Part shown: positions 3,395 to 18,937 of the stretch, piece after piece
Numbering within the stretch: the first letter of the stretch is position 1
Layout: the number at the start of each line of letters is the position of its first letter
DNA from: a virus
Direction: 5' to 3' (one strand)
Length of the DNA: 64,000 bases
Virus record (IMG/VR): IMGVR_UViG_3300029267_002600
Span: 1-64,000 of that record
Program-made: the position numbers and the translations under genes
The notes under the pieces: generated by a model
Databases searched by the model: none
What the model was told of the DNA's origin: nothing
The model's input: only the letters and a program-made list of their open reading frames with translations

Positions 3395-4078
3395 ATGTAT
3401 AATCAGCAAGGGCAGGAATCATTTAGATCGGTAGTGATGGCACATCTCAAAGACTTATCAAAACTTACTTGCACAGCAGAACCTTTCGATTATCATATGA
3501 ATCATATTTGGGCAATGCTTGATCCTTACACAACTGATGATGATCACAGGAAATGGCAAAGGGAAACTGTCAATAATGATTACAAATCTGGCATGATGAA
3601 AATTAGGATCATATCAATGGTATTGTATCGGGCAGGGGTTTTACCGAAAAGGGATATTAAGAATCGGCAGTTTCCAGTTCAAGTAAAAATTGGCAAGATA
3701 GGTATTAAACAAGGTATGACACGACACGTTAAAGAGGACATTGGATTTATGGACATATTATTTAATCACATGAGAATCATATCAATGCTAACTTCCAGAA
3801 GAATGGATGTAACAATTCATCTTGATGCACTTTGGTTTTTGCTTTCACCTTATATAACACAAGAAGATTATTATCGTTGGCAACAGAACAATGAAACCTT
3901 TGGCAACAAAGGAAGCGATAAATATAAACCGCAAATGTGGAATATCGAAAAGGAACGTATAATTGTTCATTTAATGAATCGTGCCGATTTTCTTTGGAAA
4001 TCCACAGGAATAGATGCCCCTGAAGAATTTGTAGATGGGGATGGAGAAATAAATGTCAGAAGCGCAATCAAAGGATAG
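3395..4078 (+). CDS. hypothetical protein with internal duplication
   Basis: Two similar halves (LDPYTTDDDHRKWQRE vs LSPYITQEDYYRWQQN; RIISMVL vs RIISMLT). First gene after the long non-coding region. Confidence 0.6.
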   Translation: MYNQQGQESFRSVVMAHLKDLSKLTCTAEPFDYHMNHIWAMLDPYTTDDDHRKWQRETVNNDYKSGMMKIRIISMVLYRAGVLPKRDIKNRQFPVQVKIGKIGIKQGMTRHVKEDIGFMDILFNHMRIISMLTSRRMDVTIHLDALWFLLSPYITQEDYYRWQQNNETFGNKGSDKYKPQMWNIEKERIIVHLMNRADFLWKSTGIDAPEEFVDGDGEINVRSAIKG

Positions 4079-5378
4079 AGAAATTGATGAAGATTTCAAT
4101 AAAATGGAATTAGAAATAGAGTATGAAGATGATCATTTTCATGCAAAAGAAGATATTGAAGAAGATTACAGATTATTAATGGAACAATCAAAGATTAAGC
4201 ACAAGTATTGGTTAAGCGATTATGCATTGCGTAGAATCCGCATGAATCAGAATTACATTATATTGATTGTCGGGGGCGTGGGAACTGGAAAATCATATTC
4301 GGGCATTAAACTTGCAGAAGATATTGATCCGTATTTCAATGTGGATCGGATAATCTTCCATCCGAAAGATTTCATTACATTATTAGATAGTTCATTGCCG
4401 AAGGGTTCAGTAATCATGTGGGAAGAAGTTGGTGTATCGCTATCATCAAGGGATTGGTATAAGGAACAGAACAAGATTATTTCATCATTATTTGAAACAT
4501 TCCGAAGGCACAATCTAATATTGATCATGACAGTTCCATTTGTTAAGTTCATTGACAGCAGGATTAGAAGCATGATACATGGATTTGCGGAGATGATAGA
4601 TCCGACATTTACAGGTGGCAAATTCGGTTGGTTGAAGTATTTCCATGTGATTGTAGATCAGCGTTCAGGAAAGATTAGGCACAGGTATCCGAGAATCCGA
4701 GATGATGAGGGTATGGTAATAACAATGCAGGGAACTACCACCGAGCAGGGCAATATGCGATTCTCATTGCCTTCAAAGGAGATACTTCCACTATATGAGC
4801 AGAAGAAGTTAGAGTTTGTTCAATGGCAACAGAAATCGGGGTTATCAAGTTTTGAACCGAAGAAGGTTGCAGGTAGTTTAGAGATAAACGATTTCATCAA
4901 AAAAATGACATCCAATCCGAGAAAGTATAAATTGATAACAGGAAAGGGCAAGAAGAAGGAATCATTAACTAATTTGATTGAGCATAATTGGGTTCTATTC
5001 AAGATAGATTATCCAGATATGAATTTTCAGAAGAAAGATTTAGTTAGCGCATTAAGGTTTGTATTGAGTTCATATGATTACACATTCAAAGGGGCATCCA
5101 AAGAGATTCAGGATAATGAACTTGGCACAGTATATGAGTTAATGGAACTTGTGGGCGATAACAAGAATCAGATAGCCAAGATGCTTAATACGAGTAATCA
5201 CACATTGACAAAAGCAATCAGTAATTGGAAGAAGAACGGAATGTGGCAGGAATATATTGATGATATAGAGTTACAAAAACAGTTGGAAGAAGAAGAAGCA
5301 GAAGCGATCATAATGCCAAGCGATAGAAAAGACCATAAGGAAAATAATGGAGATGAAGAAGATGAAGAAGATGAATGA
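4053..5378 (+). CDS. P-loop NTPase (possible morphogenesis/packaging ATPase), C-terminal HTH-like segment and acidic tail
   Basis: Walker A ILIVGGVGTGKS, Walker-B-like SVIMWEE, and the later NQIAKMLNTSNHTLTKAISNW. No nuclease motifs recognised. Confidence 0.65.
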   Translation: MSEAQSKDREIDEDFNKMELEIEYEDDHFHAKEDIEEDYRLLMEQSKIKHKYWLSDYALRRIRMNQNYIILIVGGVGTGKSYSGIKLAEDIDPYFNVDRIIFHPKDFITLLDSSLPKGSVIMWEEVGVSLSSRDWYKEQNKIISSLFETFRRHNLILIMTVPFVKFIDSRIRSMIHGFAEMIDPTFTGGKFGWLKYFHVIVDQRSGKIRHRYPRIRDDEGMVITMQGTTTEQGNMRFSLPSKEILPLYEQKKLEFVQWQQKSGLSSFEPKKVAGSLEINDFIKKMTSNPRKYKLITGKGKKKESLTNLIEHNWVLFKIDYPDMNFQKKDLVSALRFVLSSYDYTFKGASKEIQDNELGTVYELMELVGDNKNQIAKMLNTSNHTLTKAISNWKKNGMWQEYIDDIELQKQLEEEEAEAIIMPSDRKDHKENNGDEEDEEDE

Positions 5379-5610
5379 GAATCAGCAGTTTGTAGTAGAT
5401 AAGATGAAAGAAGGATATGAGTTGATAAAATCATGGTCATTCGTAGGTCATGATATTAAGGATACATATCACTTAATCAAGAATAAAGATTGGATTAAGG
5501 TTGATGGCAGAACATTTAAATCACTACTGAACAAAGGAGTAATTGCTTATGATCGCAACTGGGAAAAGTATGATGGCAAAGTCATGAAGTTAGTTGAGAT
5601 AGAGGGTTGA
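5347..5610 (+). CDS. hypothetical protein
   Basis: ORF overlapping the end of the NTPase gene. Alternative in-frame ATG at 5371. Confidence 0.55.
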   Translation: MEMKKMKKMNENQQFVVDKMKEGYELIKSWSFVGHDIKDTYHLIKNKDWIKVDGRTFKSLLNKGVIAYDRNWEKYDGKVMKLVEIEG

Positions 5611-5612
5611 AT

Positions 5613-5807
5613 ATGAAAGTGAATAAGATTATTCTATGGAAACTTATCAATAAGAACGGCACAATCCTAAATTCAGGAGTATTGGATCACAGATGCAATA
5701 TTGATAAAGATTGGCTTAAAGAGAATAAATATACGTTGATTGAGAAAGAGTTTGAAATCAATTACGATACCATGAAGATAAACGAAATCGGAGGTAAAGA
5801 TGAGTAA
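5613..5807 (+). CDS. hypothetical protein
   Basis: ATG at 5613 just after the upstream stop. Track ORF 5607..5807. Confidence 0.5.
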   Translation: MKVNKIILWKLINKNGTILNSGVLDHRCNIDKDWLKENKYTLIEKEFEINYDTMKINEIGGKDE

Positions 5808-6162
5808 AAGAAAGAAAATGCAAAGGGATAAAGCATTGAATAGTGATAAGAAGATTTGGGCAATTCAAGTTATTATGAAAGAGTATTGCCAAACATGGAA
5901 TGATGCATGGAAAGACGGCAAGGGCATTATGGTTTATGTCGTTGATAACTCAATGGCAAGAGCAATTCAGAAAGCGATTTATTATTATGGCAGAAAAACA
6001 GGAATAAAATCAATAAAAGTTAAGGAACATTACAAGCATGATAAAATCCAAATTAATTTCAGGAGAGCAACCAAAATGGAGATTATCAATACAAGGGCAG
6101 GTATGGGGCTTGATTTCACAGATGGAGAATCAAAGAGATTTAGATGCTTGGAAGTGATCTGA
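5800..6162 (+). CDS. hypothetical basic protein
   Basis: ORF with an 8-nt overlap to the upstream gene. No family recognised. Confidence 0.5.
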   Translation: MSKRKKMQRDKALNSDKKIWAIQVIMKEYCQTWNDAWKDGKGIMVYVVDNSMARAIQKAIYYYGRKTGIKSIKVKEHYKHDKIQINFRRATKMEIINTRAGMGLDFTDGESKRFRCLEVI

Positions 6163-6510
6163 ATGAGCAAAAGAGATACAAGATTGGATAACATAGATGA
6201 AAAGTTGCAGAAGGCAAAAGAAGAAATTGAAAAGTTGGATAAGACAGTAAGCAAGAGAACGCAAGTATTATTTACGATCTTTGAGTTCCAGAAAGCACAT
6301 GGCAGGGGCATCACATTAAATGAATTAGTTGATTTAAGCGGATTCAATAGGGATGTGGTATCCAAATCATTTGATAGTTTGTATGATATGCGAATCATAG
6401 AAGATGATTGGAAATGTGTGAGGGGTGATTATACGAAGGTCATATCAGTTGTAAAGGATTCAATGGCATTCGTGGAGAAGATCTATAATGAAATAAAGGA
6501 AGGTGATTAA
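6163..6510 (+). CDS. putative winged-helix DNA-binding protein with N-terminal coiled coil
   Basis: GITLNELVDLSGFNRDVVSKSFDSLYDMRIIE resembles MarR/TrmB-type wHTH. The call is by eye only. Confidence 0.4.
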   Translation: MSKRDTRLDNIDEKLQKAKEEIEKLDKTVSKRTQVLFTIFEFQKAHGRGITLNELVDLSGFNRDVVSKSFDSLYDMRIIEDDWKCVRGDYTKVISVVKDSMAFVEKIYNEIKEGD

Positions 6511-7069
6511 TTTGGATTGGAAAGGGCATTTAAAGTGGGGCTTCATTGGAACGGTGATGCTATTGATAGCATTACTAATCTTGGAATTTCTGAAGTTACC
6601 TTTCTTTATTGAGTATGAAAGTTTATTTGCCAGTTCAAGATTCATAATACTTGGAATTACGATCCCGAACATAATAATAGCATTTGTGGGTGGGCTATAT
6701 GGATCATTATTTCCAGATGTAGATGTAGGCACATCAAAGGCGTTTGCAATCACATATATGATACTGATACTTTTATGTTTATATTTCACCTATTCTGGCT
6801 ATGTCATGGGCTTATTTGTAGGCTTGATTTTAATGGCATTTATAATTGGTTTAAAGCACAGGGGAGTTATGCACAAACCCTATACGGCGATCATACTTGG
6901 CATAGTAATATGGATATTTTTTGAGAGCATTTTTATTGCCACATTTTTCACATATGGTTACTTGATTCATTTGGTTTGTGATATTCCACCGAAAGCCAGA
7001 TGTAAAGAATGCGGAAGGAAATTTAACCCCAAATCTGCCAATCAGAAATATTGTAATCGGTGTAGATAA
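6503..7069 (+). CDS. polytopic membrane protein, DUF457/YdjM-like putative metal-dependent hydrolase with C-terminal zinc ribbon
   Basis: Several TM helices. LFPDVDVG, HRGVMHKP and HLVCD motifs recall the DUF457 family. C-terminal CKECG...CNRC. GTG 6503 or TTG 6512 start after GGTGA. Confidence 0.4.
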   Translation: MINLDWKGHLKWGFIGTVMLLIALLILEFLKLPFFIEYESLFASSRFIILGITIPNIIIAFVGGLYGSLFPDVDVGTSKAFAITYMILILLCLYFTYSGYVMGLFVGLILMAFIIGLKHRGVMHKPYTAIILGIVIWIFFESIFIATFFTYGYLIHLVCDIPPKARCKECGRKFNPKSANQKYCNRCR

Positions 7070-7070
7070 T

Positions 7071-7511
7071 ATGAATATGAGAGAAGCAGTAATGGGCGAT
7101 CTCAAGCAGATATTATACATATATCATGCCACATTCAACGATACAATCAGGAATCCAGAAAAATACTACAAGAAATATATCAAGCAAGGCAATGTGATGG
7201 TTCTGGATAAGAACGGAATCATCTATGGGGCATATGTTTGGGAAATCAACAGAATGAGAAATATATTCAATTCAAAATCATTATGCGGAAGCAGATTCCT
7301 TTGGTTACGGCAGGTCATGGTAGATCCAGAACATCAAGGTCATGGCTTGGGCAGGATGCTAATGCTTGATTTTATGATGAAATCGAATTATCAAATGCGG
7401 TTAGTTTGTGAGCAACATTTGGTAGAATGGTATAAGCGATTTTCATTTCTATGTGATCAGGTTTGTTACCATAATAAAAAAGAATTATATCTTATGAGAA
7501 AGGATGGATAG
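7071..7511 (+). CDS. GNAT-family N-acetyltransferase
   Basis: RQVMVDPEHQGHGLGRMLM matches GNAT motif A (Q/R-x-x-G-x-G/A). ATG at 7071 right after the upstream stop. Confidence 0.6.
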   Translation: MNMREAVMGDLKQILYIYHATFNDTIRNPEKYYKKYIKQGNVMVLDKNGIIYGAYVWEINRMRNIFNSKSLCGSRFLWLRQVMVDPEHQGHGLGRMLMLDFMMKSNYQMRLVCEQHLVEWYKRFSFLCDQVCYHNKKELYLMRKDG

Positions 7512-7520
7512 AAATGATAG

Positions 7521-7540: not shown

Positions 7541-7565
7541 ATTTTAATAGGTGAAGGTGAAAGCC

Positions 7566-7835
7566 ATGAGTGAAAAGAAAAAGTTAAGTGATAAGGAGAA
7601 GGTTTTGAGAGCAGGATGGATAGTAGCCATAGGATTGATTGTAATCTGTTTTGCAACCACAATCATATTTTGGTTCAATGGCATCACATCTTTTAAAGTG
7701 CCAATGGGTGTCATGATGCTATTGACATTCGTATATCCGATCTTATTCTTCTTCTTGGGAATGTGGATTGTAATGAAGAAGAAACTATTTCCCATGAAGA
7801 AGCCAAAGCCAGATCCAGAAATACCACAGGAGTAA
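7566..7835 (+). CDS. small membrane protein (2 TM)
   Basis: ATG 7566 after GGTGAAGGTGA. Two hydrophobic helices. Confidence 0.55.
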   Translation: MSEKKKLSDKEKVLRAGWIVAIGLIVICFATTIIFWFNGITSFKVPMGVMMLLTFVYPILFFFLGMWIVMKKKLFPMKKPKPDPEIPQE

Positions 7836-7839
7836 TTTA

Positions 7840-8148
7840 ATGGAATATAGTAATGGATTTCATACAATGATGTATGCGGTTTGGGAACTACTTGATAAGG
7901 TCAATATAGAATCCAACAGCATAAGTATGAATGCATTCAAATTAGGCAAGTTGATTAAACGGCAGAAGATAAAATCCAAGCATACTTTAGATCAGAAAGA
8001 AATCTATTACTATTCCCAATCTTTAAAAGAGATATACAAGGAATGGGCAAGGCATGGGCATCCTGATTGGTCAGTAAGGGAAAAGGAAATAAGTTCAGTA
8101 TTTACAGTAATATTTGAACGCAAGGAATTTAAAAGGAAGGGATGCTAA
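7840..8148 (+). CDS. hypothetical protein
   Basis: 102-aa ORF in tight spacing. No family recognised. Confidence 0.5.
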   Translation: MEYSNGFHTMMYAVWELLDKVNIESNSISMNAFKLGKLIKRQKIKSKHTLDQKEIYYYSQSLKEIYKEWARHGHPDWSVREKEISSVFTVIFERKEFKRKGC

Positions 8149-8582
8149 TGGAGATAACGACAGCATTTAGATTTTGGGATTGGATTAAGGGAGAATGGAC
8201 AGTTATAAATTATGGCATAATATCAATCGAAGGGCATCCGATCTTTCAATTTATTAAAGATTGTGAAAAAAGCCCAATTGAGATTACGCATTCGATTGGA
8301 GAAACGGATATTAATGGCAAAAGGATATTCGTGGGCGATTGGGTAGAAACGACATCAGATTATGAGAAGGATCTTTATCTGATACTTAATGACGGTGAGA
8401 AGATATTCGCCAGAAGGTTCATCATAGATTACAGATGCCAATGTGAGCAATGCATTGATGAAGATAAGGTAAGCAATTGCTGGACATACGAAGATCTGGA
8501 TATATATTATGCATTGATGAATCCAAAGATCGTAGGCAATCAATTTGAGCATCCAAACTTACACAAGGGGGTAAGAGATTGA
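8142..8582 (+). CDS. YopX-like protein
   Basis: GETDINGKRIFVGDWVE and C-terminal IVGNQFEHPNL resemble the YopX family signature (tG..D.nGk.IyeGD ... iGNi.enpeLl). Confidence 0.5.
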   Translation: MLMEITTAFRFWDWIKGEWTVINYGIISIEGHPIFQFIKDCEKSPIEITHSIGETDINGKRIFVGDWVETTSDYEKDLYLILNDGEKIFARRFIIDYRCQCEQCIDEDKVSNCWTYEDLDIYYALMNPKIVGNQFEHPNLHKGVRD

Positions 8583-8631
8583 AAACAGGTAGGCACGAAG
8601 AATTGATGAAGGGAAGAAAGGAGAAGGAATA

Positions 8632-9120
8632 ATGCAAGAACCAACCAATATCAAGGAGAAGCGATTCAACATTAGCCAAGATGATTTGTTAGTAATATTA
8701 ATTTGCGGATTGATCATATTTGGATTGGCATTGGTTTGGTATTGGAGAATTACATTATGGATCAGCATTCCATTGACGGCGATCTTGGGCTTGTCATTGT
8801 ATTATCAAGTGATGGTGTGGATTAAACAAACAAGCATGGCAATGGTGGGTATGGAGATAGAAGATAAGATGATAAACGAGTTTGCCTATCAAACAATGAA
8901 AAGGGGGCATACAGTAAGGATCTTTAATGTTAGGGATAGTGATGATGCAGATTCAGATAGCCATTACAAGATTACAACAGATATGCCAAAATGGAAAAAG
9001 AAGTATGTGAAAACGATCACAATCATATTTGTGATTCTATTTCCAGCATGGAGATACAGGGAGTTTGAGGGCGAAGATAACATATGGGTTAGTGATATTT
9101 GGGAAGGTGATGTTAGATGA
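8632..9120 (+). CDS. membrane protein
   Basis: At least two N-terminal TM helices and one C-terminal hydrophobic segment. Confidence 0.55.
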   Translation: MQEPTNIKEKRFNISQDDLLVILICGLIIFGLALVWYWRITLWISIPLTAILGLSLYYQVMVWIKQTSMAMVGMEIEDKMINEFAYQTMKRGHTVRIFNVRDSDDADSDSHYKITTDMPKWKKKYVKTITIIFVILFPAWRYREFEGEDNIWVSDIWEGDVR

Positions 9121-9482
9121 ACGGAAAGAATGATGAAGTAAAGACAGCAGATCAGAAGCGAATGGGCATAGCCAAAGAGATAGAGCAGAAGCGATTCAAG
9201 GGCAAGAGGAACAAGATCGTGGATGCCTTTATCGAAGTATTAGAAGAAGATCCTGATATTGTGATAGAATATATCACAGATACAGGAGTTGAATGGAATT
9301 TCAAGCCAGATAGTGATCCAGTAAAGGCGATTGCAGGAGATATAAAATCACTTGCAGATATGGACAAGTTGGAAAGGAAGCAATACGACAGGATGTATAA
9401 GGATTATGAGAAGGAAGCACTAAAGAAGGCGAAGAAGAAGTTGGGAACTATCGGCGTAATGAGGGCGATCATGGGGGAATAA
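9117..9482 (+). CDS. hypothetical Lys/Glu-rich protein
   Basis: ATGA overlap with the upstream gene. Charged and probably helical. Confidence 0.5.
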   Translation: MNGKNDEVKTADQKRMGIAKEIEQKRFKGKRNKIVDAFIEVLEEDPDIVIEYITDTGVEWNFKPDSDPVKAIAGDIKSLADMDKLERKQYDRMYKDYEKEALKKAKKKLGTIGVMRAIMGE

Positions 9483-9483
9483 C

Positions 9484-9621
9484 ATGGGATATACTGATAA
9501 AGAAAAAAAGATTGTAGATCAAATTCAAAACTTCTGCAAGAATGATTGTTCGGTCAATGAAACTTGCGCCGAAGATGAATGCATATTATACAGGATTCTC
9601 AAGATAATCAAGGAGAAATAG
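9484..9621 (+). CDS. small Cys-rich protein (45 aa, below the track threshold)
   Basis: ATG one nt after the upstream stop; the stop lies one nt before the next ATG. MGYTDKEKKIVDQIQNFCKNDCSVNETCAEDECILY... Confidence 0.4.
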   Translation: MGYTDKEKKIVDQIQNFCKNDCSVNETCAEDECILYRILKIIKEK

Positions 9622-9622
9622 A

Positions 9623-10327
9623 ATGGAAATGGAATGGATGATGCCAATAGTCATGATCATGGTCGTGGTCATTATAGTTATGATGGTAGTTAGAATGATC
9701 AAAGACATGGCAGGTAAAAAGAAGCCACAAAAGATTGAGATTGCAAGGGATAGTGATGAACGATTGGAGAAGGCATACACCCGAATGATCAAAAACAAAT
9801 TGAACAAGGATAGAATGCGACACACACTTTGGATTACTGGCGATAAATACATACAGGGTTATAGAGTGGGCGATATAGTTGGCATTCAACCACAGAACGA
9901 GATGTTGAAGATGCACATCAAATCTCATTGGTGGATGTTCTGGAAGAAGGCGTTTCCGATCTATATAGATCCAATCCTTTGTAGTGATTTAAATTGTAAG
10001 GACATTGTAGTTCAATGCAAGGGCTTTGAAGCAGTATCAGAAGGGCTTTATTTTCCCATTCCAGTTGCCGATACAAAGAATCTGGAAGCCATTTATATTG
10101 GCAGGGATAATTGGAGATTATCACGAATATTGAAGCAATCAATGGATGATTTAAATCAGGATACAGATGTAATTACAAAGATGGCAATGCGTGGAGATCT
10201 TGAAAGGGCAGGATTTGAAATAGAAAAACTACACATCATGCCAGAAATAGAAGAAGAAAAGGTCAGGAAGTATCAGCAAAGGGAAGTTAGAGATCGGTAT
10301 TCAGGTTCAGGTGGGGGTGGTTCTTAA
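9623..10327 (+). CDS. N-terminally membrane-anchored protein
   Basis: Met/Val/Ile-rich N-terminal TM helix. C-terminal GSGGGGS tail. Confidence 0.6.
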   Translation: MEMEWMMPIVMIMVVVIIVMMVVRMIKDMAGKKKPQKIEIARDSDERLEKAYTRMIKNKLNKDRMRHTLWITGDKYIQGYRVGDIVGIQPQNEMLKMHIKSHWWMFWKKAFPIYIDPILCSDLNCKDIVVQCKGFEAVSEGLYFPIPVADTKNLEAIYIGRDNWRLSRILKQSMDDLNQDTDVITKMAMRGDLERAGFEIEKLHIMPEIEEEKVRKYQQREVRDRYSGSGGGGS

Positions 10328-11037
10328 TGGCTTACTATTTTTGGGATGCCATTGCGGATTATCCAGTTGAATCCGCAATCATAATCACAATCGGGGCATT
10401 GATCTATATCGGTTGGGTGAAGAAATTTTGGTATTTACATAAGCCATCAATATTTTGCACAAAAATGGGCAAATGGAGAGTTAGGAGATTCAATGGCAGG
10501 ATAGTTCGATTCAAAACCGAGCATGGCAAGAAGATGCTAACTGAAAAATGGAAAGATTTCGAAGATAATAAGGAGATAATGTTATACATCTATATATCAG
10601 GGCAACCAATTAGACCAATGAAAGTAATCAACGGCGATATTTGGTCAATCAAAAGGAATCCGTATAAGTTATTCAAACGAGAAATCACAATGAATAGAAA
10701 GAATCTGATTTGGAATGCGGATAAGAACTATTATGAATATTCAGATGATGATAATGAGATTTACCTTATTAAGCCACATATATTTGAGAAGGCAATGATG
10801 AAAAAGATAGACAATTTGGATATAAAAGCCAGTAGGGGATCAAAGACATCCCCACAATTGATTCATAGCGGTTATTTCAATAATCATCTTCCAATCCCAC
10901 CTGATGAATATCATGAAAAGGATAAATCCATGCAGATAACAGAATACGCCTACTCTACAAAGGATCGTGGGGCATATGGAAAATATGATGATTTGATGGG
11001 TGAAGATGAAGATGAAGAACTGGATGGTGAAGAATGA
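10327..11037 (+). CDS. N-terminally membrane-anchored protein with acidic tail
   Basis: TAATG overlap. TM helix AIIITIGALIYIGWV. C-terminal EDEDEELDGEE. Confidence 0.6.
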   Translation: MAYYFWDAIADYPVESAIIITIGALIYIGWVKKFWYLHKPSIFCTKMGKWRVRRFNGRIVRFKTEHGKKMLTEKWKDFEDNKEIMLYIYISGQPIRPMKVINGDIWSIKRNPYKLFKREITMNRKNLIWNADKNYYEYSDDDNEIYLIKPHIFEKAMMKKIDNLDIKASRGSKTSPQLIHSGYFNNHLPIPPDEYHEKDKSMQITEYAYSTKDRGAYGKYDDLMGEDEDEELDGEE

Positions 11038-11408
11038 ACTACGGTAAAGATGAGCATGAGATAAGACAACTGGAAGAACGCATTGATAAGAAAATGCGTG
11101 ATTTACAATTCAGAAAAGGTGAGATACTTGATCTTAATATTCGACATATTCAGGAATTTGTGTGGTCATTTACAAAGGCTTATGAGAACGGCGATATGCA
11201 AAGGTGTGGTAGAATATTAGACATTATGATAACACTATCGCATAATAAAGAGCAGATACCAACATTGCAGGAGTATTTTGGTGGAGAAAGAATAGCCAGA
11301 TACAAAGGCACGATCCATATTGATAAGGCATCAGAATGGATAACATACATAGGAGAAATAATAATTGGAATGACAGAATGGAGAATAGAAGCAGAACCGA
11401 TAGATTAG
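11034..11408 (+). CDS. hypothetical protein
   Basis: ATGA overlap. No family recognised. Confidence 0.55.
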   Translation: MNYGKDEHEIRQLEERIDKKMRDLQFRKGEILDLNIRHIQEFVWSFTKAYENGDMQRCGRILDIMITLSHNKEQIPTLQEYFGGERIARYKGTIHIDKASEWITYIGEIIIGMTEWRIEAEPID

Positions 11409-11420
11409 GAGTTGAAAAAT

Positions 11421-11936: not shown

Positions 11937-11964
11937 GAAATTATAAATAAAAGGTTGCAGATTT

Positions 11965-14388
11965 ATGTGTGTGATAATGCGAAAGTATCTTGCATTTGCG
12001 GTTTTCATCATCATCATAGGGGTTCTTTTTCAATCTCCAGTAGCCAAAGCACAGGAAGATTCTGCCCATTCTTTTGATGCCGAATTTCAAGCGCAAACAC
12101 TACCTGATGGAAGCCCTGTAATTGAGAATAATCTTGCCGAGCAAGGTGAAATCAGAACGGAAATTGATATTTGGGAAAACGACATGGGCAAGGAAGTAAC
12201 TGATGGATCTTATGTCGGTGGTATTTTTGAATCATCATTGATGGAAGTTGATTATGAACCATTAAAAATTAATGATTCATATTCATATGATGTAAAACTA
12301 TATGATAATCTTTTACCAAGTTTTTATAGGGATGATTATGGAACACCATTATTTCCACCACCACCAATCCCATTAGTTGCAATAGGGGATGAATATGGTG
12401 GCAGGTATCAAGATAATTTTCCGATTGCAAAAAAAAGATCAATTATAACGATTTCTAACGTAATGAATTTTACTAATAGAATGATTATGTCGGGGGCAAC
12501 AGAATTTTATGTAAAAATACCACTAAACCCAAGTTGCATTAATTTTGATGAAATTACACCAACCATGTGTGCATTTAAAATTGAGAATGAAAATTCCACT
12601 CAAATATATCAATCTATAAATAATGGGCATCTATATTTAGAACCAAATTTTTCGATTATTTATGATCCATTTCCATTTCGTTGGCAATCGTATGATAATG
12701 GAACTGTATATGATGTTCAACAAGATTCTGGATTAATAAGACAGGATATTAATGTGGGTGAAATTTTATTTCCATATTATCGTGGAAATATACCAAATAT
12801 AATTCAACCTATTAGGAACAAAAACATAGTAAATGATGGATTATATGCAAGAGTTTTAGGAACAATTGAACCAAACACAAATTATTTATTTACATTCAAT
12901 TGTATTTTAGAATCACAACCATTAGTATATCTTACAGAAGATGATATTTGTTCCAATGGCAGAAATTCTTCAATCATGGTTTCCGATCTAAATTTTGTAT
13001 TAGAACCATCTGGATCAACATGGTGGGATGGAACATTTGAAATAACAGCATCACATGGTTGGCATCAACTTGTAAAGGTTAATGTTAATGAAACAAATTT
13101 TCCATTAATAAATGAAACGATTGATGTTCCAGTAGATATAGCATTCTCATTTATATTTAAAAGTGGTAGAGGGAATTATGGGATGTTTGGTCATAAATTC
13201 CATTTCAATAAAAATGATGCACTTGTATTTTATGATAGATTAGAAGCCCCAACAACTGATAAATTCGTTTCAGTTATGTTACCTTTCATTGCAGATAGTG
13301 GTATATTTATAAACCTAACAGTTTGGCTTTTAGATCCCACTAACAAATATGAACCAACTGGCGTTTTAAGTGAATATGGTAATGAATATGTATATGTAAA
13401 TACAAATGTTTGGCATTCAAATGAACAAATTGACTATACAGATTACATCATTTTTACAGTTCCTTATAGAATTAATGCAACAACTGTTAGAACAGATTAT
13501 ATTGATATTAAAGTGATGGTAACATTTGAAAAAGAAGCAGATGTTACATTTATGTTCTCTACCCCTGATAATGCAAAAACTGGCATTGATGATTCATATA
13601 TAGAGCAGAATCCAAGTTTATGGGATAGCACAACTGAATATGATACATTTCAATCATACATTCCATATTACAAACCAAGAAGAAATTTAACTTATATATA
13701 TGAGGATGTTAGAACAATTCAATTTGGTCATTATACATGGTATGATTATGAAGGATTCATTAAGAAAGTATTTCCAACTCAAAATGTATCAAGTTCAAAG
13801 ATAAAAGTTCCAAGAGATTATTCAGATGCCACAATAATGCATTATGAACTTTTCAGATCGGTTCAATTAACAGATGGAATCTGGCATGAATTAGTAACAT
13901 CAGCAGAAGGATTCCAGTATGCCACACACTTCTTTGAGAGAAGGATTTCTATTGGATTGATTAACTTATGGGTTGATACAACAGATAACGATACCGAAGA
14001 ACAAGTTGCATGGTATGATGATGGATTGCAGAAGTGGGGTAAAGCATGGGAATCATTGACAAAATTAGATATTATCAATGCGATCTATTATGCAGTATCG
14101 GGAACAATATCGTTAATCTGGAATGGCTTACAAGCATTTCTTGGCTTCATTGTTGGCATATTCTATAAAGTTTGGGATGGGCTTGTAAAGGTGGGAAAGT
14201 TTGTCTATTCTGTATTATCTTCATTCGTAGGAAAAATTTTAGAAATTGTGGGGGATATTGTCAATAGTCTTGAGAATATTTTGGAAGTAATGCTATATAT
14301 CATTGCCATAATCATTTTTGCATATGTGGTAAGTTGGTCAGGAAGATTCATCTATAAGAAAATCAGTTTAAGGGGGCTTGGAATATAA
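11965..14388 (+). CDS. large secreted, C-terminally membrane-embedded glycoprotein candidate (virion/envelope spike?)
   Basis: Signal peptide (AFAVFIIIIGVLFQSPVAKA/QED). Many N-x-S/T sequons. About 130-aa C-terminal region with several hydrophobic helices. Confidence 0.7.
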   Translation: MCVIMRKYLAFAVFIIIIGVLFQSPVAKAQEDSAHSFDAEFQAQTLPDGSPVIENNLAEQGEIRTEIDIWENDMGKEVTDGSYVGGIFESSLMEVDYEPLKINDSYSYDVKLYDNLLPSFYRDDYGTPLFPPPPIPLVAIGDEYGGRYQDNFPIAKKRSIITISNVMNFTNRMIMSGATEFYVKIPLNPSCINFDEITPTMCAFKIENENSTQIYQSINNGHLYLEPNFSIIYDPFPFRWQSYDNGTVYDVQQDSGLIRQDINVGEILFPYYRGNIPNIIQPIRNKNIVNDGLYARVLGTIEPNTNYLFTFNCILESQPLVYLTEDDICSNGRNSSIMVSDLNFVLEPSGSTWWDGTFEITASHGWHQLVKVNVNETNFPLINETIDVPVDIAFSFIFKSGRGNYGMFGHKFHFNKNDALVFYDRLEAPTTDKFVSVMLPFIADSGIFINLTVWLLDPTNKYEPTGVLSEYGNEYVYVNTNVWHSNEQIDYTDYIIFTVPYRINATTVRTDYIDIKVMVTFEKEADVTFMFSTPDNAKTGIDDSYIEQNPSLWDSTTEYDTFQSYIPYYKPRRNLTYIYEDVRTIQFGHYTWYDYEGFIKKVFPTQNVSSSKIKVPRDYSDATIMHYELFRSVQLTDGIWHELVTSAEGFQYATHFFERRISIGLINLWVDTTDNDTEEQVAWYDDGLQKWGKAWESLTKLDIINAIYYAVSGTISLIWNGLQAFLGFIVGIFYKVWDGLVKVGKFVYSVLSSFVGKILEIVGDIVNSLENILEVMLYIIAIIIFAYVVSWSGRFIYKKISLRGLGI

Positions 14389-14519
14389 GATATACTGTCA
14401 TATTTGTAGCAATTATAATATTAATATTACCTTTAAATCAGGTTGTTCAAGCGGATGTAGTTGAGGAAGAAAGAACATTATTTATCCAAGCAGATCCAGA
14501 TATTGAATATGATTGTGTT

Positions 14520-17500
14520 TTGAACATAATAAATACAAGCAATGATCAATACACAAACGATAAGTTATTGATTGAACAATTTGAACAGGATACTGGCATA
14601 TCGGGTGGTTTTTCAGGATCGTTTTTGCCCCCTGCAAAGTTTCAACTAAATGATGCAAATACATCTGCATCCAATAATCATCTTGTTATGGCATCCATAG
14701 TAGAATTTAATCGTAAGAATCTACTTTCAGGGGCTTCAATATCTTGGTGGAGATGCCCCTACTTCTATAACTCATCCTTTTCTACAAGCAGGGATTGGAA
14801 TTTAAATATGTCAATCTATCATGTAGATCTTCCAAGAGTAGTTAATTTTTCATTTGATTATGCAGGTGGTGGAAATAATTATCCAGTAGTGCCAACAGCA
14901 TCATCACATCCATCACTTATATTCCAGAAATCATTTACAAATTGCGGATCTACACAGAATGATGAGCAATGGAACTTTACGAAAACAGCAATCATTCCAG
15001 CAAACGATACATTAGTTGATCCAGAATTGCCTTACAATGAAACTACAAATCCACATCTATATAATAATTCACTTCAGTATAGTTTTGCTTGGTTCAATGT
15101 TTCTGCCCCGATCTATCCGAATGAATCATACATGGTCATTTGGGATGTGCAAGATGTAGCAATGGGCGTTAATGATGCAGGAAGTATGTGGCTAACAGCA
15201 TCCGATATAGGAAACAATGCATACGGCAGAACATTATTCTGTTGGAATAACAGAACAGTATATGAACTGCCAATTGATTTAGATAGTTCTGTAATATTCC
15301 AGATAGGCATGGGGGCAGGAATTTCAGGAACAAAATTGGCTTATAACGATCCTGATTATATAGATCATACTTCCAGATTTGATCACACAAATTTTGGTTC
15401 AGGGGGATATAATTTTCAATCCGATTTCAGCAATTCCTTTGCAACTGATGGCTTTACAACAAGCGTTTCAACAAGTTCAGATGCATGGGTTAGACGAAAT
15501 GCAACATTAGAAAGAGCAGATTTTATACTTAATAGAACAGGATCGGTATCATCAAATTTTGGTGGGGCAGGAACAGATGGAACAAATAGTGGAGAATGGG
15601 GGGAATTAATATATGATAGGGGGTTAAGTAAATGGGATTCAGAAGGAGTTACTTTCAAATTTGATGTAAATATGTATGGTGGCATTGTTGATCTAACAAG
15701 CCCCGATAGAACAGTAGTAAGTTCAGAATTAAAAATAGCATTATACGATACTACATCAGAACAATGCAGATTTGCAATAGCAAGATACAAGGAGATTTCA
15801 GCAACAGGAGTAAATTTTAGCAATGAAATTAGATATTATGATAGCGGAAGCGTATATTCTACAATACCTTTGCCCGATTCATTTCCACAACATTTTCATC
15901 TTTCAGTATCAGTAGATATACCCAAAGGAGAAGTATATATCCACATATATCATCCAGATATTCCAAACAGAATATATTTTGCACATATGTATTCCAATAG
16001 ATTTGTGGGTTCAAGCACAATTAATGGCTTATTATTGGCAGGTTGTGTGTTAGAAACTGCATTAGCAGATACAAGAACAGATGGAGAAGTTGTAATTTCA
16101 GTAACCAAACTATCAGGAACTAATAGAAAAAACACATTACTTTGGACAATAAACAATCCATTTAACCGACAATCTTTATCTATTCATGATTTCTATTCAG
16201 GTTACGAAACATTAGTTCCAGATGTGAATTTTTCTTCTCCAGATACAAGGTGTATAGGATTTACTCATAGATTTCCAATTGGTTCAGCAGTAGATATTCA
16301 ACAAACCCAATCATTTTCTGTTGGAATAAACAGAAGGGTGTTTGCGACAGGATATTATAGGATGCTTTTCAATGACAGCACAGATTCTTATGCAGGATCG
16401 GACAGTTATTTCTATTTCCAAGTTGAAGGATGGGATGGCTTCAATTGGATTGCTTCAATCAATGAGAAATATTATGCTCTTGATGGAACATGGCATCAGG
16501 TCAGCACAGGTCATATAACTGGCACATTCTATCAAATAAGAATAACAGTAGGATTTAGATTCCCAAGCCCTGATGATACAAGTAGGGCAGATTTAAAACT
16601 TGGATTTTTTGATAATTTAAAAGTATTCAGTATTGATAATTCCAGTTTGAAGCATCATATATTCTATCAGGATGTGGATCAGCAGGATTGGAATGCCACA
16701 AATTACTACACATTCATGCTTCCATTTAGACAGGTTGAAGATCCTGATTTTACTCCATTCTGCAAGTTAGAGTTCAAAAATTCAGGTGGAACAACTGTTT
16801 ATACAAGTCTAACTTATCCAACAGATTTTCATGATGATTTCATAATAGCAGGTATTAAAACATCCAGCATTCCAAGTTCTTCAGCATTTATAAAAATCAC
16901 ATTGTATAATTTCGGTAATCAATCATATTTATTCTTGCACGATAGAAATAGTGATTTCGATCTAAATACGGATAGAATGTTCAGAAATAATTACTTTACA
17001 GATAATGATGCATCAGGAACAATGCTAAACGAAACATATTTTTCGCCTTACTATTCATTGAAAACCACAGAAGGCGAATGGCTTAATGCTGATTCATATT
17101 TCACTACAAGTTATTTCTATTTTGTAGTTGTCAGATTCATAGAATGGAACGATAATGATCCAGAAGTGATATTGATTCAATTTGATGCAGTTGATGTTGA
17201 AGATATTGATGTTTATAGGGTTAAATTAAGCGCATTTGGAGATGTCTATGATGATGAGGAATGGAAGATGTATCTGGATATACGGAATCGCCCATCATGG
17301 TTAGATAAGATTGTAGATTGGTTCTTAAATTCTCCATTAGGTCAGTTCTTTGGTATGATCGGCAAGTTTATTCATAAAGTTATAAGTTTTCTTGCGCCCT
17401 ATGTTCAATCATTACTTCATTTAATGCTGGAAGCATTTGTATTTATAGTATCAGTAGCCATATTTTTCTTTGCCATGTTTGTGATGTGGAATCTTGTTCA

Positions 17501-17612
17501 ATTTACTATATTAATGGCACAAAACAAGCCAGAAGAAGCCATAGATCAATTAACAGATTTCACAGGTAAGGTATCAGCATTAGTTGGTAAAGCAGTAAGC
17601 GTGGTAAGGTGA
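14520..17612 (+). CDS. very large glycoprotein candidate with C-terminal membrane helices; true start probably upstream
   Basis: 1030-aa ORF from TTG 14520. The in-frame upstream stretch 14358-14519 encodes a signal-peptide-like YTVIFVAIIILILPLNQVVQA/D but has no ATG/GTG/TTG. Many sequons. C-terminal TM helices. Confidence 0.65.
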   Translation: MNIINTSNDQYTNDKLLIEQFEQDTGISGGFSGSFLPPAKFQLNDANTSASNNHLVMASIVEFNRKNLLSGASISWWRCPYFYNSSFSTSRDWNLNMSIYHVDLPRVVNFSFDYAGGGNNYPVVPTASSHPSLIFQKSFTNCGSTQNDEQWNFTKTAIIPANDTLVDPELPYNETTNPHLYNNSLQYSFAWFNVSAPIYPNESYMVIWDVQDVAMGVNDAGSMWLTASDIGNNAYGRTLFCWNNRTVYELPIDLDSSVIFQIGMGAGISGTKLAYNDPDYIDHTSRFDHTNFGSGGYNFQSDFSNSFATDGFTTSVSTSSDAWVRRNATLERADFILNRTGSVSSNFGGAGTDGTNSGEWGELIYDRGLSKWDSEGVTFKFDVNMYGGIVDLTSPDRTVVSSELKIALYDTTSEQCRFAIARYKEISATGVNFSNEIRYYDSGSVYSTIPLPDSFPQHFHLSVSVDIPKGEVYIHIYHPDIPNRIYFAHMYSNRFVGSSTINGLLLAGCVLETALADTRTDGEVVISVTKLSGTNRKNTLLWTINNPFNRQSLSIHDFYSGYETLVPDVNFSSPDTRCIGFTHRFPIGSAVDIQQTQSFSVGINRRVFATGYYRMLFNDSTDSYAGSDSYFYFQVEGWDGFNWIASINEKYYALDGTWHQVSTGHITGTFYQIRITVGFRFPSPDDTSRADLKLGFFDNLKVFSIDNSSLKHHIFYQDVDQQDWNATNYYTFMLPFRQVEDPDFTPFCKLEFKNSGGTTVYTSLTYPTDFHDDFIIAGIKTSSIPSSSAFIKITLYNFGNQSYLFLHDRNSDFDLNTDRMFRNNYFTDNDASGTMLNETYFSPYYSLKTTEGEWLNADSYFTTSYFYFVVVRFIEWNDNDPEVILIQFDAVDVEDIDVYRVKLSAFGDVYDDEEWKMYLDIRNRPSWLDKIVDWFLNSPLGQFFGMIGKFIHKVISFLAPYVQSLLHLMLEAFVFIVSVAIFFFAMFVMWNLVQFTILMAQNKPEEAIDQLTDFTGKVSALVGKAVSVVR

Positions 17613-17619
17613 TAATTCT

Positions 17620-17973
17620 ATGGTGATTCAGGAACTTCCATTTTTTGCGATTCTTCTTCTAACGATACTCCCCATTACGATAGGAATAATTATATTCGCA
17701 AGGATTCTTGGAATCGCAAGGGGATTAATTACAAAATTCAAATCCAAAGAAGTATCTACATTGATGGATTTTGGAGAATTATATCTATTTGTAACCTTTT
17801 TGGTTATCATAATTGGTATTGTTTATTACATCATGGGTTCTCAACCATCTGGCTTTTCGATCTTCGATTTTTTAATAGTAGAGATGTTGCCAATAGCGTG
17901 GTATTCAATATTATTATATGGCATAATTGTTCAGTTAGTAATCATGCTTGGCAGGGGTGAGAATATTGGTTGA
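17620..17973 (+). CDS. integral membrane protein (3-4 TM)
   Basis: Hydrophobic throughout. Confidence 0.6.
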   Translation: MVIQELPFFAILLLTILPITIGIIIFARILGIARGLITKFKSKEVSTLMDFGELYLFVTFLVIIIGIVYYIMGSQPSGFSIFDFLIVEMLPIAWYSILLYGIIVQLVIMLGRGENIG

Positions 17974-17983
17974 TCTTGATATA

Positions 17984-18058
17984 ATGATTGGATTATTAGC
18001 CACATTATTTGGGCTTATGATTATCAACTTTCTTGATCGCTTATTCTGGAGAAAATAG
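17984..18058 (+). CDS. tiny single-TM peptide (24 aa), tentative
   Basis: MIGLLATLFGLMIINFLDRLFWRK. Below the track threshold. Confidence 0.3.
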   Translation: MIGLLATLFGLMIINFLDRLFWRK

Positions 18059-18215
18059 TAGAAGTATTTAAATCTTATGCGTTAGGTTATATATAAGTGA
18101 ATGAAATTTATGAGTAACTAATGCTTACTACAAAATACAGCGACAACGGAAACATCTGCCCCGAAGATGTAAAAACATACTGGGGAAGAACTGGAAATTT
18201 GGGGGTGTATTAGTA

Positions 18216-18326
18216 ATGACCGATTTTTCGGAAATTACGACACTTGTTATTTCACTTCTGCCTGTTTTGGTGATATTGATCGTTTTCAAGTGGATCATCA
18301 AGACATTCAGCGAGATGGAGTTCTAA
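18216..18326 (+). CDS. tiny single-TM peptide (36 aa), tentative
   Basis: MTDFSEITTLVISLLPVLVILIVFKWIIKTFSEMEF, preceded by GGGGGTG. Below the track threshold. Confidence 0.35.
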   Translation: MTDFSEITTLVISLLPVLVILIVFKWIIKTFSEMEF

Positions 18327-18358
18327 TAGCCCAACATACAATCTAATAGGTGATGTAA

Positions 18359-18937
18359 ATGAAGAAATTCATTTCATTCCTTTTGATAGGATTGATGTTG
18401 TCGGCGTTAGCCACACCACTTGCTTGTGCATCAAGTGAAACAGGATCAGGTTCATCCAGAACTGTAACATTCCATGATTCATTTCAGGATTGTAACACTT
18501 CTGTAATCGTTCCAACCGTTCTCAACAATGAAACAAACAATTCCTTTGCCTTTGTGGTAATGGATGAATCAGGTAATTGGGGGAACAACTACACATTTAA
18601 CATCACGATATACGACAACAATGTTACTTGGTGGAACGGAACGGTTGATATTGATGGAGTTCCCAATGATAACACTACTGGATACATCAACTATTCCGCA
18701 AACACATTTGATGTAGTGGATAATGCCAATATCACAATCACTATGCAATGGCAGAACTTCACAGCAACGAATGATGATGTTTGGTATGGAGAAGTTGATA
18801 TTGTTGATGAAGCCACATATACAATCCGAGTTGTAACAACAGAATTGATGGTATCTATTCTGGCAATGGGATTAGTGATACTCTTTATCGGCAAGATCTT
18901 GGGATCTATGAAGATGGATGAAAAGAAAAAGAAGTAA
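18359..18937 (+). CDS. small sequon-rich, C-terminally anchored surface protein (candidate abundant virion/envelope protein)
   Basis: SD GGTGAT. Signal peptide. At least 11 N-x-S/T sequons by my count in about 150 aa. C-terminal TM followed by KKKK. A strong hairpin follows. Confidence 0.7.
   Translation: MKKFISFLLIGLMLSALATPLACASSETGSGSSRTVTFHDSFQDCNTSVIVPTVLNNETNNSFAFVVMDESGNWGNNYTFNITIYDNNVTWWNGTVDIDGVPNDNTTGYINYSANTFDVVDNANITITMQWQNFTATNDDVWYGEVDIVDEATYTIRVVTTELMVSILAMGLVILFIGKILGSMKMDEKKKK

Follow-up and report, generated by a model that had tools for sequence, protein, structure and literature searches.

In Pleolipoviridae of the HRPV-1 type, the virion resembles a membrane vesicle and contains a spike glycoprotein, an internal membrane protein and a putative NTPase associated with the virion. 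Release occurs without lysis, and the genomes measure 7-17 kb. The circular genomes of the large spindle viruses span 45-100 kb and are divided into one structural and one enzymatic arm; among these viruses, the Itzamnaviridae and Tepeuviridae of ANME-1 carry auxiliary genes of the PAPS-reductase type (PMC9894754). The Haloferax virus LSV-48N (PP151251) is lemon-shaped by electron microscopy and lacks a known capsid gene; the proteome of virus-containing supernatant included its Zot-annotated ATPase as well as the product of the upstream gene (PMC12714723). The IME1 elements of Dehalococcoides, proposed to be budding viruses, encode a pI-like ATPase followed by several small proteins with transmembrane (TM) segments and signal peptides, and are devoid of tailed-virus hallmark genes (bioRxiv 10.64898/2026.09.15.751708).

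The window analysed here comprises 64,000 nucleotides, positions 1 to 64,000 of the IMG/VR virus entry IMGVR_UViG_3300029267_002600. The element is a complete circular virus-like genome of ~74 kb (74.35 kb), with a 144-bp terminal direct repeat, a CheckV completeness of 100% and 119 ORFs on the plus strand. Within 3395-18937, 21 ORFs of at least 50 aa were found, all on the plus strand, as are the other features described below. This 15.5-kb block is read, with a probability of about 0.55, as the virion-formation core of non-tailed, membrane-associated viruses, probably archaeal, that form an undescribed lineage. The components listed in the original prediction were all recovered. The P-loop NTPase with the motif GGVGTGKS is encoded by ORF 4053-5378. 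At least eight TM-containing proteins had been noticed; a Kyte-Doolittle scan located membrane helices in nine ORFs, starting at 6503 (six helices), 7551 (two), 8632, 9623, 10327, 11965, 14520, 17620 (three) and 18359, and two further conserved TM mini-ORFs lie inside a supposed gap at 17974-18358, giving about a dozen membrane proteins. The small sequon-rich anchored protein has 192 aa, and the terminator noticed after it corresponds to a terminator-like hairpin at 18954-18979 (10-bp stem with 5 GC pairs, T-rich tail), which closes the block. The left third of the block includes accessory genes, namely YdjM, GNAT, YopX-like and HTH proteins.

The element matches the large spindle viruses in its two-arm layout and in carrying a PAPS reductase. 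It differs from them in that no family B polymerase was seen, their hydrophobic major capsid protein (MCP) family was not detected and, LSV-48N excepted, deposited viruses gave no sequence match. Neither the NTPase nor the 807-aa protein described below matched any deposited pleolipovirus genome in tblastn. The IME1 elements resemble the block in their described gene content; their host is bacterial, their genomes are much smaller and no giant glycoproteins are reported.

The search for related contigs revealed syntenic relatives in metagenomes. The whole block was collinear in contigs L003, L008 and L006 and in the G001 contigs L002 and C217; in C217 it is followed by a leader-tagged gene array, as in the window. 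Since the gene order is kept in these relatives, the block is more than a chance arrangement. The families of the NTPase, the 234-aa protein at 9623 and the 807-aa protein co-occur on the same contigs. More distant ATPase relatives (35-43% identity; L012, L020, L009 and L010) adjoin giant anchored proteins rich in sequons and small proteins with 2-3 TMs. Neither a terminase nor an HK97 capsid was detected in three complete DTR genomes with the broader ATPase family. Against an archaeal host, one relative was located within a bacterial WOR-3 bin, although matches were present in only 4 of 272 WOR-3 genomes.

The NTPase (4053-5378, 441 aa) is Zot/pI-like and consists of an ATPase domain at residues about 45-270, with Walker A (residues 74-81) and Walker B (VIMWEE, residues 120-125), and a C-terminal helix-turn-helix (HTH) domain at about 340-400. 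The Zot family PF05707, to which the filamentous-phage pI/Zot proteins of Inoviridae belong, was matched by 18 of 19 ATPase family members (best E 9.7e-10), the window's own protein scoring 17.7 bits, below the cut-off of 20.3. Structural neighbours of its AF2 model (pLDDT 67.5) in BFVD were ORF286 of the spindle-shaped Acidianus two-tailed virus (ATV, Bicaudaviridae), which ranked best (E 1.6e-6, TM 0.50 by target), Inoviridae Zot models and A32-type packaging ATPases of giant viruses (E about 5e-4). As in Inoviridae, the ATPase is accompanied by short hydrophobic proteins and, presumably, by non-lytic release. Unlike inovirus pI, it has no TM helix or periplasmic domain and bears the HTH domain instead; furthermore, the element is dsDNA-like, roughly ten times larger than inovirus genomes and equipped with giant glycoproteins. 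Five ATPase relatives contain inteins exactly within the Walker A loop, and as such inteins are typical of indispensable ATPases, they were counted in favour of a particle-formation core. Judging by synteny, the 227-aa soluble protein with an internal duplication (3395-4078) is an obligate partner, its gene lying directly upstream of an NTPase homologue in 9 related loci (25-62% identity). This partner had no sequence match in Pfam, PHROG or PDB, and no similarity to the product of the gene upstream of the LSV-48N ATPase.

The ATPase could instead be a replication initiator. The block would then comprise two modules, one from 3395 to about 9500 (NTPase, partner and small HTH genes) for replication initiation or regulation and one at about 9600-18937 for envelope or surface proteins. 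Such a division is considered unlikely. The NTPase matched phrog_5484, named 'DnaA-like replication initiation protein', at 1.7e-10, and a P-loop with a C-terminal HTH fits an initiator, as do weak PDB Foldseek matches of the model, which include DnaA, ORC/Cdc6 and RFC chains. However, 18 of the 19 family members match Zot and not AAA+ initiator families, and in the model strand 5 is followed by a beta-rich segment in place of the helical lid of AAA+ proteins. On the circular map the gene stands at the border with the replication/enzymatic arm, and in LSV-48N the ATPase (317 aa) is encoded outside the structural operon, transcribed apart, beside integrase and regulators; yet the LSV-48N protein is present in the extracellular virus fraction, and in small distant elements anchored glycoproteins and 2-TM proteins directly flank the ATPase. 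The neighbours in the Atlas are short proteins with ATPase and HTH parts; their contigs are labelled as tailed viruses, which would not need such a protein for morphogenesis, whereas the sampled loci of the broader family contained no tailed-virus genes.

Of the 50,697 genomes of deposited phages and viruses, LSV-48N alone encoded a homologue of the ATPase (E 2e-26, 30.7% identity over 192 aa). Like LSV-48N, the element is a circular dsDNA with an integrase and no recognisable capsid gene. The structural block of LSV-48N encodes a protein of 904 aa that has a signal peptide, three C-terminal TMs and 19 sequons, together with a small protein combining signal peptide, sequons and TM, and many 2-3-TM proteins of 74-122 aa; CDS0019 shares the architecture of the 192-aa protein of the window. 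Thus, both blocks combine giant and small anchored glycoproteins with numerous 2-3-TM proteins. Beyond the ATPase, no shared gene was detected at the sequence or profile level. LSV-48N also differs in its genome size (24.9 kb versus 74 kb), its high GC, its haloarchaeal host and the absence of a leader-tagged gene array. Since the only relative in culture is a lemon-shaped virus that infects salt-loving archaea, a tailless, membrane-associated particle is probable. The LSV-48N homologue, ATV ORF286 and the shared architecture support the earlier proposal that the block resembles spindle or pleomorphic archaeal viruses more than tailed phages.

Downstream of the NTPase, four small soluble ORFs (5347-6510; 87, 66, 120 and 115 aa) had no family matches; they are variable and probably regulatory or accessory, and only 6163-6510 was conserved (in L002 and L005). 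The accessory YdjM-like 6-TM protein (6503-7069; PF04307, E 1.4e-8) was conserved only in L002. The GNAT acetyltransferase (6978-7511; PF13508 and PF00583) had homologues in L002-L006 and L008 and is conserved beside the NTPase. The 94-aa protein with two hydrophobic TM helices (7551-7835), conserved in L002, L003, L006 and L008, is a candidate hydrophobic capsid or membrane protein; it had no significant PHROG match, and the SSV1 VP1 profile phrog_11172 did not match it. It is followed by a basic soluble protein of 102 aa (7840-8148), conserved in L002, L003, L005, L006 and L008 with no family match, and by an accessory 146-aa YopX-like protein (8142-8582; phrog_98, E 1.5e-9), conserved in C217, whose C-terminal motif IVGNQFEHPNL we take to be YopX-like. 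A 162-aa membrane protein with 2-3 hydrophobic helices (8632-9120) was conserved in L003, L005, L006, L008 and C217, and a charged soluble protein of 121 aa (9117-9482) in L003, L008 and C217.

The 234-aa protein with an N-terminal membrane anchor (9623-10327) is among the best conserved core products, with identities of 65-69% to its L003 and C217 counterparts and of 25% to that of the soda-lake locus L010. Its family comprised 18 clusters in a set of 5.8 billion proteins. The product of the adjacent core gene (10327-11037) has 236 aa, carries a hydrophobic helix at its N-terminus and ends in an acidic tail (60-64% in L003 and C217, 23% in L010). Neither protein had a PDB or PHROG match, and the Atlas model of the former was of low confidence. 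Two soluble proteins (11034-11936; 124 aa and a Cys-rich one of 174 aa) are conserved in L003, L008 and C217, the 11034 gene also weakly in L010; no family matches were obtained for them.

Two large glycoprotein candidates had been predicted. Both proteins exist and are anchored, with 807 and ~1075 aa, while the label 'glycoprotein' is moderately supported by their sequon statistics. The 807-aa protein (11965-14388) is secreted and comprises a signal peptide, a pair of beta-sandwich (lectin/CBM-like) domains and a C-terminal helical membrane region. Its 13 sequons exceed the shuffle expectation of 6.6 +/- 2.3 (p about 0.01), and it is a candidate receptor-binding or terminal protein. The ~1075-aa protein (14385-17612) measures 1030 aa when read from TTG at 14520; reading from ATA at 14385 adds a signal peptide. 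The ATA was unchanged in contigs of four runs, and the C217 homologue has an ATG start and a signal peptide. The 1030-aa form has a C-terminal TM anchor, and its 21 sequons exceed the 12.2 +/- 3.0 of shuffled sequences (p about 0.005). Similarity between the two large proteins was weak and confined to the C-terminal helical region.

A 117-aa protein with three hydrophobic helices in the TM scan (17620-17973) follows the giant gene, also in C217, and L012 repeats this arrangement with a giant anchored protein and a ~100-aa 3-TM protein. Three conserved mini-ORFs (17987-18326) recur between the corresponding genes of C217. Two of them, 17987-18058 and 18216-18326, encode TM peptides, the latter of 36 aa and preceded by GGGGGTG; the third, 18121-18213, encodes a peptide of 30 aa. 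The 192-aa protein (18359-18937) has a signal peptide, a sequon-rich domain and a C-terminal TM with a KKKK tail. Its 11 sequons exceed the 3.7 +/- 1.6 expected, and none of 2000 shuffles reached this number. It is 63% identical in C217, and L009 and L010 encode proteins of the same architecture (21-25% identity) directly after the NTPase. Its sequence suggests that it is probably an abundant surface glycoprotein.

It had also been predicted that capsid, portal and terminase are missing, and for profile HMMs this holds across the complete element. Pfam and PHROGs scans found no such family among the block ORFs or all 119 plus-strand ORFs of the 74.35-kb genome. In six-frame searches of the whole genome, in which the positive controls matched, Terminase_6N, Phage_capsid, Phage_portal, PRD1 P3 and NCLDV capsid gave nothing at E <= 10; hence, no canonical MCP of the HK97 or double-jelly-roll type, portal or terminase was detected in the block or elsewhere. 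The SSV1 VP1 profile, representing the hydrophobic MCP family of spindle viruses, had no match, and the small TM proteins of the block had no significant PHROG matches. These results speak against the least probable reading, an icosahedral internal-membrane virus or a tailed virus whose divergent capsid genes lie outside the block, for instance in the leader-tagged array at 19-47 kb. In that case, the block would contribute the packaging ATPase, spikes and proteins of the internal membrane. Numerous small TM proteins also occur in icosahedral viruses that contain a membrane, and fold-level capsid detection covered two proteins. The A32-type ATPases among the BFVD neighbours fit such a virus too, but the closest neighbours are spindle-virus and Zot proteins. 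Moreover, the 9623/10327 pair is N-terminally membrane-anchored, whereas jelly-roll capsid proteins are soluble.

Quite unlikely, too, is a plasmid-like or vesicle-borne element, in which the block would be a membrane transfer apparatus or vesicle coat, with the ATPase pumping or docking DNA and the anchored glycoproteins mediating cell-cell or vesicle-cell contact. The Halorubrum plasmid pR1SE spreads in specialised vesicles. The missing capsid gene and the many membrane and adhesin-like proteins agree with this, and the integrase and the defence or modification genes, identified by Pfam matches of the 119 ORFs, are typical of plasmids as well. However, 72,556 plasmids yielded no archaeal match to the ATPase and a single weak one, on a Virgibacillus plasmid (E 4e-4). 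VirB4, VirD4 and relaxase were absent among the best 25 of the 30 Pfam families matched, and the sole cultured ATPase relative is a true virus. The IMG/VR and CheckV call of a complete virus argues weakly in the same direction.

If the block is the virion-formation core of a non-tailed virus, the ATPase and its partner would bind the genome through the HTH domain and drive its loading at the cell membrane, a role parallel to the pI-driven assembly of filamentous phages. The N-anchored 9623/10327 pair may organise the assembly site, and the small hydrophobic proteins (94 aa with two TMs, 117 aa with three TMs, and the peptides of 24 and 36 aa) may form a hydrophobic alpha-helical shell or membrane layer. 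GNAT, YdjM, the YopX-like gene and the small HTH genes would be passengers. The lectin-like proteins of 807 and ~1075 aa and the 192-aa glycoprotein would decorate the particle and bind the host, and the particles would leave the cell without lysis.

All features listed for the block at positions 3395-18937 (+ strand), namely a P-loop NTPase, TM proteins, giant proteins, a small sequon-rich protein and a hairpin, were found to be present. Hydrophobic helices were counted in nine ORFs, in line with the at least eight TM-containing proteins of the original prediction, and the terminator-like hairpin was confirmed at 18954-18979. A tblastn comparison with all ORFs revealed a common gene order among related metagenomic loci: the 227-aa gene at 3395, the NTPase (4053-5378), a GNAT gene and the genes starting at 7551, 7840, 8632, 9117, 9623, 10327, 11034, 11412 and 11965. 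This order is kept in L003 (a 51.6-kb contig), L008, L006 and L002. Together, L002 and contig C217 of MAG G001 cover the whole block, including the 1030-aa gene and the genes at 17620 and 18359; downstream of the block, C217 carries genes whose N-terminal leader is the same as that in the window at 19-47 kb. The clusters of the NTPase, the 807-aa protein (11965) and the 9623 protein numbered 27, 22 and 18, respectively, and contig sizes of 97,415, 36,449, 66,966, 135,881, 12,472 and 16,046 bp were common to the three. Conservation across the relatives is patchier for YdjM, for the four small ORFs at 5347-6510 and for the YopX-like gene, which are most plausibly passengers. The family profiles of the two N-anchored proteins of about 235 aa (9623 and 10327) gave no PDB sequence match, and for 9623 no usable Atlas neighbour was obtained (pLDDT of the Atlas model, 0.39). 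The 174-aa core protein encoded at 11412-11936 displays a ten-Cys cluster in its first half (CPNYCP...C...C...C...C..C...C), possibly a metal-binding or disulfide-rich domain.

The best-supported reading of the block, with a probability of about 0.55, is as a module for particle formation in a virus lineage that is non-tailed and membrane-associated. In such a module, the membrane would be the site of action of a pI-like ATPase, the small hydrophobic proteins would form a shell or membrane layer, and the anchored glycoprotein candidates would serve as spikes.

The NTPase (441 aa) contains the anticipated Walker A motif GGVGTGKS at residues 74-81 and a Walker B motif VIMWEE at residues 120-125. 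In an alignment of 19 sequences, G74, G77, G79, K80, S81 and E125 were invariant. The window protein scored 17.7 bits (E 0.0025) against PF05707 Zot, for which the cut-off is 20.3, while 18 of the 19 aligned family members matched this profile at E <= 0.01 (best 9.7e-10). The TM helix that follows the ATPase domain in Ff pI is absent, no hydrophobic segment being found in the NTPase, and the C-terminal 60 residues are helical and HTH-like. An AF2 model of moderate quality (pLDDT 67.5) had ORF286 of Acidianus two-tailed virus and further entries as top BFVD neighbours, followed by Inoviridae Zot proteins and A32-type packaging ATPases. When the model was compared with the PDB by Foldseek, only generic P-loop and AAA+ matches were retrieved, DnaA and ORC included; the family profile gave chance-level matches only against PDB sequences, and an IMG/VR scan with the close NTPase alignment gave no match. 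At E <= 1e-3 the superfamily comprised 4,389 representatives at 50% identity. In five relatives (P0003, P0006, P0009, P0010 and P0024; L002 7553-9196) an intein interrupts the Walker A loop after G77. These inteins are of 140-141 aa, or of 381 aa with homing-endonuclease domains, and all five are canonical, with a Cys start and a His-Asn end followed by Ser or Thr. Such a pattern is typically seen in ATPases that are indispensable to an element.

The 227-aa gene at 3395 was located directly 5' of the NTPase gene in all nine loci in which the position was readable. Its product (3395-4078) shows an internal duplication, with two repeats of about 100 aa that each contain a conserved W, L-x-P-Y and W. 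No relatives of this protein were detected outside the element family, and its family profile had no PDB sequence match.

In a set of 50,697 deposited genomes of phages and viruses, the NTPase matched only LSV-48N (PP151251), a Haloferax virus (30.7% identity over 192 aa, E 2e-26). The LSV-48N genome is circular, integrating and 24.9 kb in size; the virus is chronically released, EM shows it to be lemon-shaped, and there is no resemblance to known capsid proteins in any of its ORFs (PMC12714723). The supernatant proteome of that study lists its 317-aa 'Zot' together with the 195-aa protein encoded by the upstream gene. Its structural operon encodes a giant protein of 904 aa that has a signal peptide, 19 sequons and, at its C-terminus, three TM helices; a sequon-rich 143-aa protein with a signal peptide and a C-terminal anchor; and seven small TM proteins (74-122 aa, one to three helices each). 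These architectures are identical in kind to those of the block. The proposed likeness to spindle-type archaeal viruses is thus upheld by the NTPase homologue in a lemon-shaped virus and by the same protein architectures, the ATPase alone being similar in sequence: tblastn with all ORFs of the element against the LSV-48N genome returned the ATPase only, and hhalign of the 3395 and 807-aa families against their LSV-48N counterparts gave probabilities below 1%. Comparable modules have been proposed for the Dehalococcoides IME1 elements (bioRxiv 10.64898/2026.09.15.751708), and a division into a structural and an enzymatic arm is known for large spindle viruses of ANME-1 archaea (PMC9894754).

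A role of the NTPase in particle assembly is predicted, supported indirectly by the occurrence of its LSV-48N homologue in the virus-containing supernatant and by the conserved linkage to membrane-protein and glycoprotein genes. The HTH-like tail and the DnaA and ORC matches would also suit an ATPase that, with its partner, serves replication; given the supernatant listing of the LSV-48N ATPase, this explanation is considered unlikely.

The expectation that capsid, portal and terminase would not be recognisable was borne out at the sequence-profile level. No capsid, portal, terminase or tail family was found by Pfam and PHROGs among the block ORFs or the 119 + strand ORFs of the genome, so that neither the block nor the rest of the element yielded a canonical homologue of this type. 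Six-frame searches at E <= 10, in which the control genomes rang, gave no match for Terminase_6N, Phage_capsid, Phage_portal, PRD1 P3 or NCLDV capsid. The combination of HK97-fold capsid, portal and large terminase that characterizes Caudoviricetes is absent at this level, and the jelly-roll capsid profiles PF09018 and PF04451 had no match in the genome, structure models having been made for two proteins. A divergent icosahedral or tailed capsid could be hidden from profiles of this kind; this explanation is regarded as unlikely. The jelly-roll-like sandwiches seen in the 807-aa protein are part of a protein that is secreted and anchored. A six-frame search at E <= 10 with the SSV1 VP1 profile phrog_11172 (spindle-virus MCP) was negative. 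The 94-aa 2-TM protein (7551) and the 117-aa 3-TM protein (17620) suit spindle-virus VP1 in size and hydrophobicity, and neither has a significant PHROG match, homology of such short proteins being hard to detect.

The two giant proteins (807 aa, and 1030 aa from 14520) show the foreseen C-terminal hydrophobic helical regions, and their sequons are about twice as frequent as expected from composition (p ~0.01 and ~0.005, respectively). For the small anchored protein that precedes the terminator-like hairpin (192 aa, 18359), sequons were three times the expectation, a count reached in 0 of 2000 shuffles. No Pfam domain was found in the 807-aa family. The AF2 model of the 807-aa protein (pLDDT 74.9, pTM 0.69) consists of a signal peptide, beta-sandwiches at 66-401 and 405-638 and long C-terminal helices, and had no credible BFVD match (TM ~0.1). 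The two giant proteins were also compared as possible paralogues; they share a weak C-terminal match and nothing detectable beyond it. The open frame of the 1030-aa gene extends upstream as far as 14358, and a signal peptide is encoded from an ATA at 14385. This codon is identical in contigs from four sequencing runs, and the C217 homologue has ATG at its position, which points either to initiation at a non-canonical codon or to a start codon whose loss has become fixed.

The supposedly non-coding 385-bp gap at 17974-18358 contains three + strand mini-ORFs that are conserved in a relative. They encode a single-TM peptide of about 24 aa (17987-18058), a 30-aa peptide (18121-18213) and a 36-aa single-TM peptide (18216-18326) with GGGGGTG upstream. 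A TATA-like stretch lies at about 18063-18095.

More distant relatives of the ATPase were also inspected. The NTPases of L012 and L020 show about 35-43% identity to their query alignments and are encoded (L012 7481-10246; L020, 12.9 kb) beside a C-anchored protein of 735-1028 aa with 14-50 sequons. Both are small elements that also carry several 2-3-TM proteins and a serine recombinase, and they look like minimal versions of the module. In L009 and L010 a protein like 18359 directly follows the ATPase. In the soda-lake relative L010 (5750-7047), the module is followed by genes with a leader of the GW-R-x-EP-x-RH-x-LA type, the same kind of tag as that at 19047-47145 in the window; tag array and module thus travel together over large distances.

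The nearest ATPase clusters are labelled as tailed viruses ('Uroviricota') in the Atlas. Among 66 ORFs from loci of the Atlas-neighbour type, integrases, resolvases, Peptidase_A24, TrmB, PolB and a Laminin_G_3 giant protein were found, and no tailed-virus genes; likewise, neither Terminase_6N nor HK97 capsid was matched in three complete DTR genomes (31-42 kb) that encode a related ATPase. The label was therefore treated as default metagenomic labelling. In these three genomes (L021 6097-7609, L022 2272-3757 and L023 6693-8187), a Peptidase_A24 (prepilin-peptidase-like) protein with 4-5 TM and a protein of about 360 aa with 5-8 TM are each encoded about 2 kb from the ATPase, which may point to a pilin-like processing step for structural proteins in this branch.

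The source genome is a single contig of 74,350 bp, with the window as its first 64 kb; 144 bp are repeated at both ends of the contig, pointing to a circular genome. IMG/VR lists it as a virus with direct terminal repeats, with a CheckV completeness of 100%. All credible genes are on the + strand, GC is about 35% and no tRNA genes were found. A Pfam scan of the ORFs matched Phage_integrase PF00589; the element thus has a circular dsDNA genome and an integrase, as do Fuselloviridae, Halspiviridae and their allies. A plasmid or vesicle lifestyle would suit an element with no recognisable capsid gene. The search of 72,556 plasmids with the NTPase yielded one weak bacterial match and no archaeal plasmid homologue, and no VirB4/VirD4-type ATPase or relaxase was present among the 25 families listed of the 30 Pfam families matched by the 119 ORFs; this lifestyle is judged quite unlikely.

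An archaeal host is favoured for the 74-kb element because of the ATPase relatives, the TrmB and Topo-VI-A-like genes and the anchored sequon-rich proteins. A sequencing-run search found the block in sediment and seawater metagenomes from several studies, and no RNA runs were listed among the runs containing it. G001, a bacterial MAG labelled WOR-3, includes two contigs of a close relative (C322, which is L002, and C217) and a third, C52, that encodes a more distant NTPase (E 4e-58). Matches were obtained in only 4 of 272 WOR-3 genomes, so the assignment is probably a binning artefact, with low-GC mobile contigs probably gathered in the G001 bin. The 'WOR-3' names that the relatives' proteins bear in public should not be taken as the host.

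No relatives of the other core proteins were detected outside metagenomes; the ATPase is the sole tie of the lineage to anything described. The lineage falls in a known kind, the capsid-gene-less, budding-type archaeal viruses with a Zot-like ATPase, with a modest chance of a novel architecture of the virion. As a tentative and rather improbable extension, the block and the leader-tagged array that always follows it (19-47 kb; also in G001:C217 and L010) may jointly specify a new kind of virion, in which the pI-like ATPase with its HTH tail would load the 74-kb dsDNA, along with two dozen soluble proteins addressed by the tag, into a glycoprotein-studded particle derived from membrane and built without a known capsid fold. 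If true, this would be a lineage of family or higher rank, separate from fusello-, bicauda-, pleolipo- and inoviruses.

To our knowledge, isolation has been almost the only route to the recognition of non-tailed archaeal viruses, because relatives of their structural genes cannot be detected. With the block, a sequence-based handle becomes available, which consists of the Zot/pI-like ATPase with its HTH tail, the obligate partner gene, the pair of N-anchored proteins (about 235 aa) and the conserved lectin-like anchored protein of 800 aa. Complete circular genomes of 13-74 kb without any tailed-virus hallmark are marked by the ATPase superfamily. The block also ties a 74-kb sediment element to LSV-48N, a virus of genetically tractable Haloferax, so that the shared ATPase role, assembly or replication, is directly testable there. 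Finally, it gives the shared-leader protein array a physical context, that of membrane assembly machinery and spikes.
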